16,983 bases of DNA from Candidatus Velthaea sp. (GTDB lineage Bacteria; Vulcanimicrobiota; Vulcanimicrobiia; Vulcanimicrobiales; Vulcanimicrobiaceae), in assembly GCA_050012475.1 (NCBI GenBank), contig JBEKHC010000103.1, positions 1-16,983 of the forward strand, read 5' to 3'. Each line of letters starts with the position of its first letter. Position 1 is the stretch's first letter. Shown piece after piece: positions 6,001 to 12,000 of this stretch. The position numbers were made by a program.

Positions 6001-9000
6001 ACATGTGCGCGGGGGTGCCTTCGAGGGCCTCGCCGCCGACTATCAACGCTATCGGATCGGTTATTCGAGCGAGCTCTTCGAGGTACTCGAAGGTTTCGGG
6101 TTCCGCCGCGGCGCGAGCGTCCTCGACGCGGGCTGCGGGACCGGCCTCTCGATGGCGCCGCTTGCGGCGCGCGGAATGGCGCCCACCGGACTCGATCCCT
6201 CACCGCAGATGCTCGCAGCCGCCATGCTCGCCGTGCCCAGCGCAACGTTCGTCGAGGGCAGGGTCGAAGCGTTGCCCTTTCCCGACCGCCGCTTCGACGC
6301 CGCGGTCAGCGCGCAAAGCTTTCACCGGTTCGATCCTGACCGGGCCTACGCCGAGCTCGCGCGGGTCGTGAAGCCCGGCGGACCGATCGCCGTTTGGTGG
6401 AAGATTTTGGGTTCGGACGACTCACTGCGCGCGTTGCGCGCGGCCGCTTGCGCGCGGATCGGTGCGCTGCCCGTCCCGGATCCGCTGCGCGGCGGATTCG
6501 GCGCATTCTACCGCGCGCCGTTCGCGACGCGAACGCTGCGGGTGCTGCCGTTTACGGCGCGTTTCGGGGTCGATGATTGGATCGGATACGAGCGTTCGCG
6601 CGCCTCGGCCCGTGACGCCTATGGCGAGAAGCTCGAGCGCTACCTCGACGCGTTGAGGTTCGAACTGCTGGCCAAATACGGCTCGCCGGCCGCGCGGGTG
6701 GAAGTGCGCTACACGCAGTTCCTGTACGTCGGCATCACGCCCCGCTAAATGGCGGCTTCGACGGCGTCGAATCCGTCGCGTACGGCTTCGCCGCGCCGCC
6801 GGGCAAAATAGATGCACTTTGGCCTGCACGTGCACGTCGGCGCCGGTTACGACGACGCGGTCGCGTACGCGCAGCGCCTCAATTGCACCGCGCTGCAATT
6901 TTTCAGCGGCAATCCGAAAACGTACCGGGTCGGCCCGATCGACCGTCCGGCGCTCGAGCGCTTCGCCGCCAAACGCGCTGCCGCCGGTATCGTGTCGGCC
7001 GCCATTCACACGTCGTATCTGATCAATCTGGCCAGCGAAGATCCCAAGATGGCGGCGAACTCGCTGCGGTTGGTGCGCAACGATTTAGCGGTCGCCGCCG
7101 CAGGTTCGGTCGCGTTCGTCAACACGCATCTGGGTTCGTACGGCAAACGCGACCGCCGCGAAGGTTTCGTGGCGGTCGTCGCCGCGCTCGAAGCGGCGCT
7201 CGAAGGCATCGCACCGGGCGTGTTGCTGGTGCTCGAAAATAGTGCCGGTGCCGGCCAGCTCTGCGGCGGCACGCTCGAGGAACTCGGCGCATTCATCAAG
7301 GCCGTCGATCATCCGCAGCTGGCCGTGTGTTTGGACACCGCTCATTCGTGGGCGGCCGGTTACGACATCGATACGCGCGACGGGGTCGAGCGCTTCATCG
7401 CCGGGGCCGATCGGCACGTCGGAATCGACCGGGTGGTGATGTTCCACTTCAACGACACGCAAGTACCGCTGAACGGTCACAAGGACCGGCATTGGCATAT
7501 CGGCGACGGGCTCATCGGTTTCGAAGGTTTTCGCGCATTGGCGTCGCACGCCGGGCTGGCGAACAAGACCGCGATCCTTGAAACCCCAGGCGAAGAAGCG
7601 GACGACGAACGCAATATGCAAACCATCCGCAGCATCTTCGCCCGCGCCGCAAACTTGGGAGACTAACATAGCGGTGGAGTCGTGCGGCGCCCCGGCGAAC
7701 GCTGCGGGCGGCGGGCTTTGCGATGATTCTGCACTTTGACTTGGATGCGTTCTACGCGGCGGTCGCCCAGCGCGACGACCCGGCGCTGCGCGGCAAGCCG
7801 CTGGCGGTTGCGGGCAGCGGCCGGCGCTCCGTCGTCCTCACCGCCTCGTACGAAGCCCGGCCCTACGGAGTGCGCTCGGCGCTGCCGCTCTACAAGGCGC
7901 GAGCGGCCTGTCCGCAGCTCGTGGTCGTGCCGCCCGACTTCGCGAAGTATCGCGCCGCCTCGCTAACCGTGTTTGCGATCTTCGCCGACGGCGCCGAAGC
8001 CGTTGAGGGCCTGTCGCTCGACGAGGCGTTCGTGGCGATCGCCGGCGACTCGGTTGCCGAAGCGGTGGCGTGGGCGGCGCGCGTTCGCGTCCGCGTTCGC
8101 AGCGAGGTCGGGCTGACGATCAGCGCCGGCGTGGCGAGCGGAAAGATGGTCGCGAAGATCGCCTCCGATTCGTGCAAGCCCGACGGACTGGCGGTCGTCG
8201 AACCGGGCACCGAGGCGGCGTTTCTGGCGCCGCTTTCGGTTTCCCGGCTCTGGGGAATCGGCCCGAAGACCCAAAGCCGGCTCGAAGCGGCGGGTGTGCG
8301 CACGATCGGCGACGTCGCCGCACTCGACGACGCGGGGGCCTTCGCGCTGCTCGGACGCTGGGGCCGCGAGGCACGCGCGCTTGCCCGTGGTATCGACGAC
8401 CGGCCCGTGGACGGGACTCGCGAGCGAAAATCGATCTCGACCGAAGAGACCTTCGAGTACGACCTGCACGACGAGGAGCGCATCATCGCGCTCTTGCGCA
8501 GCCAAGCCGATGAGATCTCCGCCGACCTGGCGCGTCTGGGCCTGCGCGGGAGCACGATCGGGGTCAAGATCAAAGCCGCCGATTTCAGCATTACGGGCCG
8601 TCAGACCAGCGTGGTAGTGCCGACCGATCGCGCCCAGGACATCTTCGCTGCCGCCCTCCACTGCTGGCAGCGCAGCGAGATGGCGGGCAAGCCGATCCGC
8701 CTGCTGGGGACGCGGGTCGCGTCGCTGAGCGAGGAAACCCCGCCGGAGCTGCCCCTTTTCGGGCCCTCCGGGGGCTCGTTGTAGCGGTAACTACTGCTGG
8801 CGCGAACCCCGAAGGCGCTAAAATAAGACACTACCACCACAGAGATACCAACCGACCCATAAGCGTGCCGCTCTCGGAGGGGATTAAAATAATGGCAATT
8901 GCTTCAGAAGCCGTCGAGGTAATCGGTAACGATCGCGTTCCCGAAAGTTACCGCGGTTTCTTCGACAACGCGGATTGGACGCTGCACTCGATCGTCGTGC

Positions 9001-12000
9001 AGGGTTCCTGGATATTCCTGATCCTGGCGATCGTCGTTCATTTCCTCGCCATCGGCGCGTTGCATTAGGAAGGGTGAGAAAATGTCGTACGATCCCATTA
9101 TAGGCTTTTCAAGAAGCGGCGGACCGAAGTACCGCGATCATATCCATGACTTCAAAGCTTCCGTGTTCGGCTATGCAGCCAGCGGAGTCGCGGCGATGAT
9201 CATCATTCACTGGGTTGTCCTAACGTCGCCGTTAGGGCATGCGAAATGGCTCGACGTTGTCGGCGCCGGCGTGCAGACGACAACGACGTCGACCACCGTC
9301 ACCAAGTAGCAACCGCCGGTCCCGGTGGATTACGGGCATTGAAGTGGTGTCGCGCCGGACGGCGACGGCACCACTTCATTATTCGGGCCGCGCATCGCTG
9401 ACGTGCGTGGAGCGAAGGGAGTTATGGATCACAACGGGCAGACGCCGTATACCGACGAGCTCAAGGCCGACACCACCGGCGGCTTCGCGAGCATCGAATT
9501 CGCGGAGAACCCGGAGCCGCGTTGCGCTTGCGTGCTGCTTCTCGATACCTCGGGTTCAATGCAGGGCGCGCCTATCGAGCAGCTCAACCTGGGGCTGCGT
9601 TCGTTCAAGGATGAGCTGATGTCCGATTCGCTCGCGGCCAAGCGGGTCGAGGTCGCGGTCCTGACGTTCGGCGATCAGGTTCGGCTGGCTTCGGACTTCA
9701 CCGACGCCGCCGGTTTCGAGCCGCCGCTGCTGACCGCCGGCGGACTGACGCCGATGGGCGCCGCGATCTGGGATGCGCTGGGCCGGCTCACCGCGCGCAA
9801 GGAAACCTATCGCACCAACGGCGTGGGCTACTACCGGCCGTGGGTCTTTCTCATTACCGACGGCGAGCCCACCGACGAGTACGAAACCGCCGCGGCCAAA
9901 GTTCGCGAAGGCGAAGGGAAGAACGCTTTTTCGTTCTATGCCGTGGGCGTCAGCGATGCCAACATGATCAAGCTGGCCCAGATCGCACCGGTCAATCGCC
10001 CGCCCGTCAAGCTCGACGGCTTGCGCTTTCGCGATCTGTTCGTGTGGCTCTCCAAATCGATGCGGACCGTCTCGCATTCGGCGATCGGGCAGACCATCTC
10101 GCTCGAACCTCCGGGTTGGATCACGACGCAGGCGTGAGCTGGCGTTACGTTGACGCGTTCGCTGTCGGCTTATCGCATCGTGAGAATGACACGCCTTGCC
10201 AAGACCGCTGCGCGGGCGCGGTTATCGCGAGCCTGGACGGCGGCGATGTTTTCGTGACGGTCGTTTCGGACGGAGCCGGCAGCGCCGCTCACGCCGAGCG
10301 CGGTGCGCAGATCGTCTGCGACGTCCTCGCCACGGTTGTGGGTGAAGCCGTTCGCGCGAGCAGCGATCTCGACCGCATCGGCGATGAACTGGTGCGCTCG
10401 TGGTTCTTGTGCGCGCGTGAAGCCGTACGCGAGGAGGCCCGTGCGCTCGACGGCGAGATTCGCGAGTATGCGGCTACCGCGCTGCTGGCCGTCGCGAGCG
10501 ATCATCAAACCCTATGCGCACGGATCGGCGACGGCGGCATCGTATTGCGGCGGACACCCGCCGATGCTTTCGAGGTCGCGCTCTGGCCCGATAGCGGCGA
10601 ATACGCCAATCAAACCTATTTCATCACCGACGACGCGGCCGCCGAGCGAATCGCGATCGCGCGTTTCGACGACGTGTCGGATGTCGTCGCCTTTTCCGAC
10701 GGGCTGCAGAACCTCGCTCTCGAGCAAGCAACGCGCACCGCGTTCCCGCCGTTTTTCTTGCCGCTGGTCGCGGCCGTGCGCCGCGCGCGCGACACGAACG
10801 GCAAGCTGCACGCGGAGCTGGTCGACTATCTCAACTCGCCGGCCATCAACGAACGGACCGCCGACGACAAGTCGCTCGTTGTCGGCTGCCGAATCACGCC
10901 GACATGACCAAACTGCGCGCCGACGGCGGCGCCGTCGTGAGTTTGGGCAAGCAGCTCGGCGCGGGCGGCGAGGGCGTGGTTTTTCGCATCAACGAAGAAC
11001 CCGCGAGCGTCGCCAAGATCTACTCCGAACCGCTCAAGCCGCGGCAAGTCGCAAAGCTGCGAGCCATGGTCGACGTCGCCGACGATCCGTTGCGGACGGT
11101 CGCCGCGTGGCCGACAGCGATGCTCTATGCCGGCTCCATTCCCGTGGGGTTCACGATGCCGCTGGTTCCGGCGCAGCGGCCGCTGCACGAGTTGCTGGGC
11201 CCGCGCAGCCGCCACGAACTCTTTCCCAACGCGCACTGGTCGTTTCTCATTCACACCGCGCGCAATTTAGCGCGCGCCTTCGGCGTGCTGCACGAGCGCA
11301 ACGTCGTCATCGGCGACGTGAACTCCAACAACATCGTGGTGTGCGGCGATTCGACCGCGAAGCTCATCGATTGCGACAGCTTCCAGTTCGCGGCCAAGAG
11401 CGGCGTGTTCCGCTGTAACGTCGGTGTGCCCGACTATCAACCGCCCGAACTGCAGCACGGTAATTTCGACGCCGTCGACCGGCTGCCCGAACACGACCGG
11501 TTCGGGCTCGCGGTGGTGATTTTCCAGCTGCTCTTCGTGGGCAAGCACCCCTTCGCCGGCGTCTTGCCGCCCGGCGCGCCCGGCGACGGAGCGATCGGCG
11601 CCAACGTTGCGGCGAAGCGCTTTTTTTATGGTCCGCACGCGCGCCGCCGCGGCTTGCGTCCGCCGCCCGGAAGTCCGACGCTGGCCTCGCTGACGCCCGA
11701 AGTGGCGGCGCTTTTCTCGCGGGCGTTTTTGGGCGAGCCCGCGCAGCGCCCGAGCGCCGCGGAGTGGGACGCCGCACTCGAAGACCTTGCCGGGCGGGTC
11801 GTGCGCTGCGCGAAGAATCCGCTGCACCGCCATCTGCGCGACGCGCGCTGCCCGTGGTGCACGCTGGCCCGGCGCGGATTGCACTATTTCATGCCGCCGG
11901 GCGCGCGGCGTGAGGAATACGGCCTCGACGAATCGATTTGGCAGCACGGCTCGAACGCCGAGGTCGAGAAGGTCTGGGCAGAAATCACGGCTGTCGCGCC

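Follow-up and report, generated by a model that had tools for sequence, protein, structure and literature searches.

A diverged second light-harvesting beta/alpha gene pair with conserved transporter and signalling partners, a candidate accessory antenna in a phototrophic member of the Eremiobacterota

The closest solved relatives of the two polypeptides described here are the antennas of Roseiflexus castenholzii (B800-B880; PDB 5YQ7, 8IUG) and Chloroflexus (B808-866; 8YDM), which are built from single-helix chains with three ligand positions and encoded in the order beta then alpha. In these organisms the pair is the only one, lies beside the reaction-centre genes and surrounds the reaction centre; the ligand roles of the Roseiflexus residues (beta His26 and His44, alpha His27) are used here as given in PMC5908803. 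The pucBA genes of purple bacteria (LH2 and its LH3/LH4 variants) are a second beta/alpha pair that only some strains have, as a rule away from the photosynthesis gene cluster. A review (PMC12654162) places LH2 genes outside that cluster. Gemmatimonas phototrophica has a lineage-specific extra antenna gene, pufA2, which adds an alpha only, with a shared beta, and lies inside the cluster; this gene is described as having evolved after acquisition of the photosystem and as adding the outer LHh ring, a second ring of higher energy (B816 to B868; PMC8849296). More than one puf-type pair per genome is likewise found where LH1 rings contain several alpha/beta types, as in Allochromatium (PDB 7VRJ, 8WDU), these paralogs being mutually close and tandem in the puf operon.

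The host of the present locus is a photosynthetic soil bacterium, a Baltobacteraceae-type phototroph of the little-known phylum Eremiobacterota, whose pufBALMC genes lie on contig C88. The window, the whole stretch of 16,983 nt that was analysed, belongs to another contig and holds on its forward strand beta2 (8892-9068; light-harvesting beta-type polypeptide of 58 aa) and alpha2 (9082-9309; alpha-type polypeptide of 75 aa), preceded by the Shine-Dalgarno-like runs GGAGGGG (8876-8882) and AAGGGTGAG (9070-9078), respectively. A genome-wide survey's note had reported both reading frames, which are indeed present on the same strand; the spacer it gave as 14 bp measures 13 nt. Small size, location where the G+C of the window is lowest (0.565) and absence from most phototrophs of the family could suggest that the two ORFs lack a function, either as duplicates in decay or as frames that are open by chance. 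We give this reading hardly any credence, since it is already contradicted by dN/dS values of 0.08-0.36 for beta2 and 0.11-0.39 for alpha2 (each gene compared in 15 genome pairs, at nearly saturated synonymous sites); both genes are under purifying selection. More than 20 intact homologs per gene, the conservation of both the promoter element and the gene module, and RNA-library contigs identical to the pair also speak against it.

Contigs from metatranscriptome libraries cover 8888-9224 and 9195-9293 and are identical to the window there (0 differences), and an adapter-bounded 441-nt insert in an RNA library, from a 93% relative, covers both genes. Two studies supplied the contigs with an exact or near-exact match to the pair. 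The survey's own reservation, that expression was not in evidence, is answered in part: the pair is present in RNA libraries, whose contigs may represent carried-over DNA and disclose neither strand nor level. Behind alpha2, a strong stem-loop at 9340..9378 on the forward strand (96-nt fold, -47 kcal/mol, z -2.9 against shuffles) could be the transcript end or an mRNA-stabilising hairpin. A consensus scan for terminators found none behind alpha2, and strong hairpins also fold 3' of the gene in the five other carriers; the shuffle comparison covered the window's fold.

Beta2 passes the Pfam LHC model narrowly (24.8 bits; cut-off 23) and falls below the cut-off of the NCBIfam pufB model (36.5 bits; cut-off 61). 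A whole-genome Pfam search returned LHC over its cut-off for two genes only, beta2 and the PufB gene of C88, the same two that the survey had named. Beta2 matches the genome's own PufB at E 2e-18, and its best solved relatives are the Roseiflexus and Chloroflexus LH beta chains (E 4e-7 to 1e-6). In an ungapped HMMER alignment, H32, H50 and Y20 of beta2 fall on Roseiflexus beta-His26, beta-His44 and beta-Trp14; the two histidines correspond to the Roseiflexus ligands of B800 (His32) and B880 (His50), and both are invariant across 22 beta2 rows. Unlike the Roseiflexus and Chloroflexus chains, beta2 stops 8 residues past His with a short C-terminus that contains no tryptophan (HFLAIGALH). PufB ends in HIFVWAWRPW, a motif missing from 24/24 beta2 homologs, all of which end 8-9 residues past His, and its three C-terminal tryptophans are lost in beta2.

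Alpha2 passes no curated family model in Pfam or NCBIfam, as the survey had conceded for Pfam, and its 22 homologs are all named 'hypothetical'. The objection is answered by a profile-profile comparison, in which hhalign matched the alpha2 profile to a profile of 15 PufA sequences with 96.5% probability (E 7e-10). The match between the alpha2 profile and Roseiflexus LH alpha is marginal (E 0.018) and sets H43 on alpha-His27 in an ungapped HMMER alignment, so that the membrane-span histidine is kept at Roseiflexus ligand positions in both polypeptides (beta2 H50, alpha2 H43), in line with the survey. H22 and H43 are invariant across 23 alpha2 rows. Compared with the Roseiflexus and Chloroflexus chains, alpha2 has about 17 extra N-terminal residues (the extension GGPKYRDHIHDFKA) and an invariant His where the core alpha has Phe/Tyr; it also carries a GHxKW motif and a Thr/Ser-rich tail ending in Lys. 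An AF2 model of alpha2 (mean pLDDT 69.6) contains helices at 15-48 and 50-61.

The tree separates six second pairs from 23 puf pairs by a long branch (about 1.2 changes per column; support 100/99), which supports the view that beta2 and alpha2 are old paralogs of the Chloroflexi-like PufB and PufA encoded in the same genome. The survey's description of a second, antenna-type pair is borne out by the PufB and PufA matches above, and so is its view of an old paralog, but its statement that the genome's own PufA lies out of reach no longer stands, because the alpha2 family profile reaches it at E 2.2e-4. Here, then, is a second pair alongside a puf pair of the same type, in contrast to the single pair of Roseiflexus and Chloroflexus, and much further diverged than the LH1 paralogs of the Allochromatium type; unlike in Gemmatimonas phototrophica, alpha and beta are both duplicated, diverged and accompanied by accessory genes. 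Membership of the pucBA lineage was considered and rejected: LH2 chains match beta2 only weakly (E 0.0018 at best), and the paralog of the pair is the phylum's own Chloroflexi-like puf pair.

Reaction-centre genomes were defined as those with Photo_RC over its cut-off, which holds for 30 of 348 family genomes. Strong alpha2 matches occur in 5 of the 347 other family genomes (G301, G021, G164, G032 and G302), all reaction-centre-bearing; alpha2 is thus present in 6/30 reaction-centre genomes, absent from the other 24, and found in 0/318 others of the family and in 0/104 sampled genomes from 20 other families of the phylum. A beta2-like gene lies directly 5' of alpha2 in all five other genomes, and in 6/6 alpha follows beta after a short spacer. 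Four of the five carry the pair either on a different contig from pufLM or 1.9 Mb away from those genes; in G032 the genes run beta2-alpha2-pufB-pufA-pufL, with the pair between crtB and pufB. The five matching genomes, their beta2-like genes and the distances from puf agree with what the survey had described, and two further claims of it hold in part. The location outside the photosynthesis cluster is true of this genome but not of G032, nor of 4/16 metagenome loci with enough upstream DNA, in which the pair adjoins pufB in divergent orientation. The reported absence from congeners is true of G299 and G300 but not of the third congener, G301, which carries the pair at a locus fully syntenic with the window. 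The pair is present or absent at a syntenic site within one genus, which, like its lack in 24 of the 30 reaction-centre genomes, speaks for an accessory role. G032 and G302 carry a divergent short subtype of the pair.

The palindrome TGTAGCGGTAACTACT (8780..8795, unstranded) follows the consensus TGTAGC-N4-GCTACA (TGTA-N8-TACA), overlaps the stop codon of dinB and is the sole match in the window at ≤2 mismatches (0.19 expected). It recurs about 100 nt 5' of beta2 in 6/6 genomes and in 16/16 testable metagenome loci, and the same palindrome stands 5' of pufB in 21/21 genomes, at -66 to -115. Its strict core has four sites in the 5.36 Mb genome, two of them before pufB and beta2 and two at places unrelated to photosynthesis. 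We propose it as a candidate operator common to the beta2 and pufB promoter regions. A -10-like hexamer, TAAAAT, was read from the sequence at 8819..8824 on the forward strand; a TAnnnT-type hexamer follows about 30 nt past the palindrome in all six genomes (TGTAAT in G032), and a consensus promoter scan gave no match in the 8819..8824 region. Taking the hexamer as a -10 element, we infer that the pair would be transcribed from its own promoter, with the palindrome centred at about -42 from the predicted transcription start. The palindrome would likely be bound by the Crp-family regulator encoded behind pufC, a gene found there in 6/6 genomes of the window's puf type examined; one such binder at both sites would place both antennas in one regulon.

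A promoter element common to pufB and beta2 would also suit alternative core-ring subunits, with alpha2/beta2 dimers taking the place of PufA/PufB dimers around the reaction centre, partly or entirely, in particular light or oxygen regimes. Purple-bacteria LH1 rings can mix several alpha and beta polypeptides, and solved LH1 rings with several alpha types are among the matches listed (7vrj, 8wdu); moreover, the pair stands in tandem with pufB in G032 or divergent from it in four metagenome loci, and the same three ligand positions occur in both pairs. We take this alternative seriously but hold it to be unlikely: the long branch and the lost beta Trp motif make mixed packing less likely, and the transporter and signalling genes that accompany the pair suggest a unit assembled on its own, neither point being decisive.

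These genes form a module in the order beta2-alpha2-(VWA/PP2C/kinase)-ABC1-ABC2, all on the forward strand. The survey had placed the VWA/PP2C/kinase operon correctly but treated it as a mere flank, whereas the pair has conserved partners in the triad and in both ABC genes. The triad starts with a TerY-like VWA-domain protein (9403..10137; Pfam VWA), followed by a PP2C-type phosphatase (10134..10907; Pfam PP2C_2, 148.6 bits; putative start codon, ORF open from 9840) and a kinase-like protein of 655 aa (10904..12871; 30.4 bits with Pfam Pkinase, short of the 31.7 cut-off). It lies between alpha2 and ABC1 in 13/21 metagenome loci; the PP2C position is conserved in such loci, and kinase-like orthologs 55-63% identical occupy the same place. 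A VWA ortholog with 74% identity or more is present in 9/348 family genomes, all with reaction-centre genes. Domain types and their order are those of the TerY-P triad (TerY-like VWA, PP2C phosphatase, Ser/Thr kinase), presented in PMC11090510 as a putative phosphorylation switch and, in some forms, an antiphage system. In contrast to TerY-P, PADLOC gave no match for the VWA or PP2C protein, and neither zinc ribbon nor OB fold was detected on the kinase-like protein; here the triad keeps a constant place, with antenna genes on one side and an ABC exporter on the other, and its close orthologs occur in phototrophs only.

ABC1 (12862..14631) and ABC2 (14571..16361; putative start codon) each combine a membrane domain with an ATPase (Pfam ABC_membrane, ABC_tran) and are predicted to form a heterodimeric exporter-type pair linked to the antenna genes; all NCBIfam models scored below cut-off on ABC1. 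ABC1 orthologs (E<=1e-100) are found in 9/348 family genomes, all with reaction-centre genes; ABC1 lies directly 3' of alpha2 in G164 and G021, and 5' of pufB in G029, G033, G022 and G162. In metagenomes ABC1 lies 3' of alpha2 in 15/15 testable loci, and ABC2 adjoins ABC1 wherever ABC1 was examined, in genomes and metagenome loci alike. The module is not universal, because an ABC1 ortholog is missing from G302, where the best match has 33% identity. An exporter linkage of this kind is unusual for antenna genes. In a further difference from purple-bacterial pucBA, no PucC/LhaA-family gene was found in this genome, and an ABC exporter pair is linked instead. The linkage could mean that the pair encodes non-light-harvesting scaffold, gate or assembly factors of the photosystem, or substrates or partners of the exporter. 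The lack of a curated family match for alpha2 fits such a role, and so does an alpha2 relative (P0050) that is fused to a cell-wall-binding domain of the OmpA type, a pointer to structural function. We nevertheless consider it improbable, as the invariance of the residues at all three ligand histidines is hard to explain without pigment and the beta-then-alpha order with its short spacer is kept in every genome carrying the pair.

With modest confidence, we favour the interpretation that beta2 and alpha2 are the two polypeptides of an accessory alpha/beta-type antenna, the second of this bacterium, with bacteriochlorophyll a as its pigment. Each polypeptide would cross the membrane once, and an alpha2/beta2 dimer would hold two bacteriochlorophylls on alpha2-His43 and beta2-His50 near the periplasmic side and probably a third on beta2-His32 near the cytoplasmic side, as in the Roseiflexus B800-B880 antenna; the dimers may assemble into a ring. 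In pucBA variants, loss of C-terminal hydrogen-bond donors goes with a blue shift. Because the beta2 tryptophans are lost and the alpha2 C-terminal loop differs, absorption is predicted at a shorter wavelength than that of the puf core antenna; by this analogy, which leans on mutant work in purple bacteria rather than on a calculation, the pigments of the second antenna are probably blue-shifted relative to the core. Energy would then flow downhill to the core and on to the reaction centre, and an extra (peripheral or outer) antenna fits such a flow better than a core replacement. The ABC exporter and the VWA/PP2C/kinase triad probably serve assembly or control of the second antenna. The sole in vivo spectrum published for the phylum, with bands at 798 and 868 nm as given in PMC9758169, needs no second antenna, because a single Roseiflexus-like B800-B8xx ring explains both bands. 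Together, the pair and its module point to an undescribed accessory light-harvesting system.

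The two genes adjoin on contig C103 of the Candidatus Velthaea genome (G000), beta2 at 8892-9068 (+, 58 aa) and alpha2 at 9082-9309 (+, 75 aa), each with a purine-rich ribosome-binding run ahead of its start. The genome-wide survey's note had placed them next to each other, which is so, and 14 bp apart, where the spacer is in fact 13 nt, both genes being on one strand. Beta precedes alpha in all six genomes that carry the pair, with a spacer of 13-33 nt, and beta2 lies ahead of alpha2 in every metagenome locus whose upstream DNA is present. The rest of the window upstream is housekeeping DNA (gcvP, NUDIX, scpAB, a DEAD helicase, a methyltransferase, an AP-endonuclease-fold gene and dinB); the pair is followed by genes for a VWA protein, a PP2C phosphatase, a kinase-like protein and two ABC half-transporters. 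A genomic island beginning after dinB was considered and rejected, the sole departure in composition being a low-G+C dip at the pair.

That beta2 and alpha2 are open reading frames without function is barely credible. Fifteen pairwise comparisons among the six genomes give dN/dS values of 0.08-0.36 for beta2 and 0.11-0.39 for alpha2, at a pS of 0.51-0.78, which is near saturation, and with non-synonymous differences of 0.09-0.34. Scanning 8600-9500 for consensus promoters and terminators gave no match. Sampled words of 8700-9500 are present in 21 RNA-library runs from 14 studies, 17 of which contain small shares of the words; contigs were compared in the other four runs, out of two studies, and stretches that no contig covers carry no weight as evidence. 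One contig covers 8888-9224 with 0 differences and spans both genes, others match 9195-9293 and 8918-9040 with 0 differences and 9145-9335 with two, and a 441-nt adapter-bounded insert from a 93% relative corresponds to 8847-9287. These contigs show that the pair is present in RNA libraries, and speak neither to strand or level nor to the absence of DNA; they bridge beta2 and alpha2, a candidate single transcript.

The sequences assign the pair, by descent, to the Chloroflexi-type antenna lineage. Beta2 passes the Pfam LHC model (PF00556) narrowly (24.8 bits, cut-off 23) and scores 36.5 bits against the NCBIfam pufB equivalog NF040862, below its cut-off of 61; it matches the PufB of its own genome at E 2e-18 (small database) and is best regarded as a PufB relative rather than PufB proper. 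Its best match among solved structures is the Roseiflexus LH beta chain (E 4e-7), followed by Chloroflexus B808-866 beta (1e-6), and LH2 chains match weakly (E 0.0018 to 0.27). Alpha2 has no match in Pfam, as had been noted, nor in NCBIfam, at E up to 10; its homologs number 22 among 5.8 billion proteins, every one unnamed or 'hypothetical', and a search of 1.84 billion representatives turned up only 7 clusters. A profile of 23 alpha2 sequences matches PufA of the same genome (E 2.2e-4) and Roseiflexus LH alpha at E 0.018, placing H43 on alpha-His27, and hhalign against 15 PufA sequences adjacent to pufL gives 96.5% probability (E 7e-10, 50 columns) with H43 on H28. The nearest solved structures to the genome's own PufA, PufB and PufL are likewise Roseiflexus and Chloroflexus chains; the PDB copy searched holds no structure from the Eremiobacterota phylum.

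In Roseiflexus, according to the available part of PMC5908803, the B880 pair is ligated by alpha-His27 and beta-His44, and B800 is held by beta-His26 with beta-Trp14. Beta2 H50, which does not vary in 22 rows, aligns with beta-His44 without a gap; likewise ungapped, the invariant H32 aligns with beta-His26 and the nearly invariant Y20 with beta-Trp14. The survey's statement that both proteins keep the membrane-span histidine thus holds, with H50 and H43 aligned to Roseiflexus ligands, and all three ligand-aligned histidines (alpha2-H43, beta2-H50 and beta2-H32) are invariant across the family alignments. A structural or assembly role outside light harvesting is, in our judgement, improbable. 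The AF2 model of alpha2 has a long helix at 15-48 and a short one at 50-61 (mean pLDDT 69.6), and Foldseek found no match for it in the PDB, a 75-residue two-helix model at this pLDDT being too small to judge; complex prediction for beta2 and alpha2 scored 0.00 ('no answer'), which counts neither way on pairing.

The pair differs from the core antenna in both chains. PufB ends in HIFVWAWRPW, with tryptophans 4, 6 and 9 residues past the ligand His, whereas all 24 beta2 homologs stop 8-9 residues past the His, mostly in ..LH or ..YK, and lack this motif. Because beta2 is without the C-terminal Trp motif, and because purple-bacterial LH1/LH2 mutants that lose C-terminal aromatic hydrogen-bond donors show a blue-shifted Qy, we expect by analogy that the second antenna absorbs at higher energy than the core. 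At its N-terminus alpha2 has about 17 extra residues with the nearly invariant run GGPKYRDHIHDFKA; its invariant His22 corresponds to an invariant Tyr in PufA and to a Phe in Roseiflexus alpha, and in the profile alignment with PufA there is a two-residue insertion ahead of the conserved post-helix Trp. An N-terminal alpha helix is described as able to occupy or re-ligate the B800 site (PMC5908803, in the part available), and therefore the alpha2 extension with His22 may alter the cytoplasmic-side pigment. That alpha2 and beta2 are alternative subunits of the core ring itself is a reading that we regard as unlikely, though the most serious of the alternatives.

Among 348 genomes of the family, G000 included, 30 have Photo_RC above cut-off. 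Strong alpha2 matches occur in six of these 30 (G000, G301, G021, G164, G032 and G302) and in none of the other 318; weak alpha2-profile matches (E 1e-3 to 1e-6) are PufA adjoining pufL. In a phylum sample of 401 genomes the same six match, with 0 of 104 genomes from 20 other families. These counts are given without a statistical test because kin are not independent. The survey's note had the alpha-like gene missing from two congeners; of three congeners, G299 and G300 lack the pair and G301 carries it. The last shares the window's gene order from gcvPB to dinB and onward over the pair, VWA and PP2C, as far as its contig reaches; G299 and G300 keep methyltransferase, AP-endonuclease and dinB, followed by a different convergent gene instead of the pair. 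The presence of the pair is scattered among reaction-centre genomes and within the genus, and it is therefore an accessory trait of phototrophs. The methyltransferase gene (5990-6748, between the helicase and the AP-endonuclease-fold gene) has no match in the G301 locus; G299 and G300 both have it.

Beta and alpha sequences were concatenated (29 rows, 117 columns) for a maximum-likelihood tree, which was built without the puf rows of G022, G162 and G301 (PufB frame broken) and without G023; it is unrooted, midpoint-rooted only without a Chloroflexota outgroup, and gives no date for the duplication relative to puf diversity. A branch of about 1.2 changes per column, supported at 100/99, separates all six second pairs from the puf pairs. 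They divide into subtype A, the window type (G000, G301, G021, G164; support 97/95), and subtype B (G032, G302; 94/81), which is shorter, with an alpha of 54-59 aa, and lacks the GHxKW motif. In the tree the second pair groups with the phylum's own antenna genes. In G301 the PufB frame (G301:C266:10472-10666) is open for 28 aa only at the LHC match and no PufB ORF was found, either a MAG frameshift or a broken gene. All PufA members of the family (e.g. L005:1194-1379) end in an invariant PAPGAK after a variable Thr/Ser/Ala-rich linker, and subtype-A alpha2 likewise ends in Lys behind a Thr/Ser-rich tail. A 212-aa alpha2 relative, P0050, has a C-terminal OmpA-type peptidoglycan-binding domain (PF00691, 76 bits), and the PufM ORF of G032 (L052:4209-5564) also bears an OmpA domain; in this lineage, components of the photosystem may be anchored to the cell wall.

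A single puf operon, on C88, is present in the genome (5.36 Mb, 204 contigs, 93.8% complete, 5.3% contamination); it runs crtI-crtB-pufB-pufA-pufL-pufM-pufC, followed by a Crp-family regulator gene and bchF. The description of the pair as lying outside the photosynthesis cluster applies to this genome, and not to four of the 16 metagenome loci that extend 700 nt or more upstream; in these four pufB-A-L-M-C-crp is divergent from beta2 and two palindromes lie inside the 250-320 nt pufB-beta2 gap. About 100 nt 5' of beta2 all six genomes have a near TGTAGC-N4-GCTACA palindrome with 0-2 mismatches, and the same palindrome stands 66-115 nt ahead of the pufB start, with at most three mismatches, in 21 of 21 genomes examined. 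The window holds a single match with up to two mismatches, at 8780-8795, against 0.19 expected. Four copies of the strict core GTAGY-N4-RCTAC are present in the 5.36 Mb genome, where about 14.6 would be expected from base composition: at C88:4087 before pufB, at C103:8781 before beta2, once between genes on C2 and once inside clpB. Across 66 loci there is one core per locus where a single antenna operon is present and two where both adjoin; the core lies 80-105 nt before beta2 in 16/16 metagenome loci that extend 110 nt or more upstream. A relaxed genome-wide search for the regulon (one core mismatch) returned 80 matches, too noisy to use, and was dropped. The C2 and clpB sites have no visible tie to photosynthesis. 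The former, a perfect copy (G000:C2:47306, L065:3007-3020, TGTAGCTTCGGCTACG), lies about 90 nt ahead of a gene for a Cu_amine_oxidN1-domain protein, with an amino-acid permease gene divergent, and the same regulator may act there too.

A TAnnnT-type -10-like hexamer (TGTAAT in G032) follows about 30 nt 3' of the palindrome in all six genomes, and the centre of the palindrome would lie near -42 of the transcription start, which is predicted near 8831, with the transcript expected to extend as far as a hairpin at 9340-9378. NtcA-type Crp members bind TGTA-N8-TACA at about -41.5 together with a TAN3T -10 box; the pattern and spacing upstream of beta2 fit such an operator, making the palindrome a candidate site. 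A Crp-family gene (HTH_Crp_2 and cNMP_binding) follows pufC directly in G000, G032, G164, G302, G021 and G301, that is, in 6/6 of the genomes with the window's puf type whose sequence covers that region. We infer that this protein binds the beta2 and pufB promoters. The regulator (G000:C88:7443-8123) has an 82% identical copy at G000:C19:35155-35829, amid Mla and pantothenate genes, with no tie seen; at a bin contamination of 5.3% that copy could conceivably come from a second strain.

The genes 3' of the pair are its partners. In the window, VWA (9403-10137), PP2C (10134-10907) and the kinase-like gene (10904-12871) form a triad with the Pfam domains VWA, PP2C_2 and Pkinase in a row, Pkinase below cut-off, followed by ABC1 (12862-14631) and ABC2 (14571-16361). 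A metagenome scan gave 21 loci, one identical to the window and three sets being duplicates (L078=L079, L081=L082, L085=L086=L087): 13 have beta2-alpha2-VWA-PP2C-kinase(-ABC1-ABC2) and eight beta2-alpha2-ABC1(-ABC2), with ABC1 3' of alpha2 in 15/15 loci of sufficient length. ABC1 and ABC2 also follow alpha2 directly in G164 and G021. Nine of the 348 family genomes, every one with reaction-centre genes, have a VWA ortholog of 74% identity or more, and 12 others have homologs of 48-63% identity; ABC1 at E<=1e-100 is found in nine, all nine with reaction-centre genes. G299 and G300, which lack the pair, and G302 have only 33% ABC1 paralogs. Both transporters are generic ABCB-type half-transporters with only generic PDB matches; MsbA, CydD/CydC, HepA and other NCBIfam models were rejected, all scoring far below cut-offs. 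The 100-aa ORF at the contig end (16313-16612) gives a weak phage-integrase match (24.4 bits, Pfam cut-off 27.1).

ABC1 and ABC2 also stand beside core antenna genes. G029, G033, G022 and G162 have a divergent puf type with ABC1-ABC2-pufB-pufA-pufL-pufM, and in G023 ABC1 is similarly far upstream of a pufL copy. The full order of this second puf type (L060-L063; G029:C14, G033:C5, G022:C1, G162:C1) is bchB-like, two palindromes, two tandem small ORFs, ABC1, ABC2, pufB, pufA, pufL and pufM, the stretch 5' of ABC1 having been read in L061 only. The tandem ORFs, present in all four loci, are paralogous, about 100 aa long and with hydrophobic stretches; they have no match in G000 and could be unknown photosystem subunits. 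G022, G023, G033 and G162 contain two or three pufL/pufM copies, some identical, tens of kb apart, which suggests duplicated photosynthesis regions.

We favour, with modest confidence, the reading that beta2 and alpha2 form an alpha/beta antenna of an accessory kind, which shares its regulation with puf and depends on the linked exporter and triad for help in its assembly or control. Membership in the LH2 (pucBA) lineage was rejected on the weak LH2 matches, the best matches to Chloroflexi-type chains and the tree with the phylum's own antennas. PF03209, the family of the purple-bacterial LH2 assembly factor PucC/LhaA, was not found in the 93.8% complete genome; this lineage must rely on other factors to assemble its antennas. 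Proteobacterial pucBA is the closest analogue by function, not by descent, as is the Gemmatimonas pufA2/LHh ring (PMC8849296, as far as available). The triad has the same domain order as TerY-P (PMC11090510, in the part available), VWA, PP2C and kinase in a row, but the window's VWA and PP2C proteins match no PADLOC model, defence-type TerY-P included, and the kinase shows generic kinase similarity only. The 2019 genomic study (PMC6664022, in the part available) reports no puhA in the phylum.

A more far-reaching proposal, which we put forward tentatively and think rather improbable as a whole, is that beta2-alpha2-VWA-PP2C-kinase-ABC1-ABC2 constitutes one self-contained, switchable accessory antenna system. 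On this view the seven-gene system originated within the lineage of Chloroflexi-type photosystems, with no common origin with proteobacterial LH2, and its alpha2/beta2 ring is an antenna of its own, peripheral or outer. Assembly or cofactor delivery, the task of PucC/LhaA in purple bacteria, would fall to the ABC exporter as a dedicated machine, the phosphorylation triad would act as a post-translational on/off switch of the antenna, and the puf operon's Crp-family regulator would exert transcriptional control over the system.

Eremiobacterota abound in peat, moss and cold-desert soils. To our knowledge, their photosystem is known from genes and one whole-cell spectrum only, and phototrophs with Chloroflexi-type reaction centres are, as far as we know, thought to have a single membrane antenna ring. 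For the sole cultured member, pufBALMC is reported together with peaks at 798 and 868 nm in vivo (PMC9758169), in a paper whose main text contains none of the words light-harvesting, antenna, LH1 or LH2; the same two peaks appear in the available part of a 2025 review (PMC12654162), and that of the 2019 study mentions one gene each for alpha and beta (PMC6664022). Among the matches listed for Eremiobacterota, Vulcanimicrobium and WPS-2, titles and abstract openings, supplements aside, mention no second antenna pair, antenna-linked ABC exporter or palindrome, and the available parts of PMC9758169, PMC12654162, PMC8849296, PMC6664022, PMC11194577, PMC5908803 and PMC11090510 name no second pair, linked exporter or palindrome. 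Undescribed in the literature searched are the palindromic control element common to both antenna operons, the puf-linked Crp-family regulator, and the ABC exporter and phosphorylation triad confined to the family's phototrophs. The alpha2 alignments define a small unannotated protein family that current models miss, and phototrophy surveys therefore undercount antenna genes. If the accessory-antenna reading is true, an independently evolved second alpha/beta antenna would reveal how this lineage adds antenna capacity, in parallel to the LH2 of purple bacteria and the LHh ring of Gemmatimonas.
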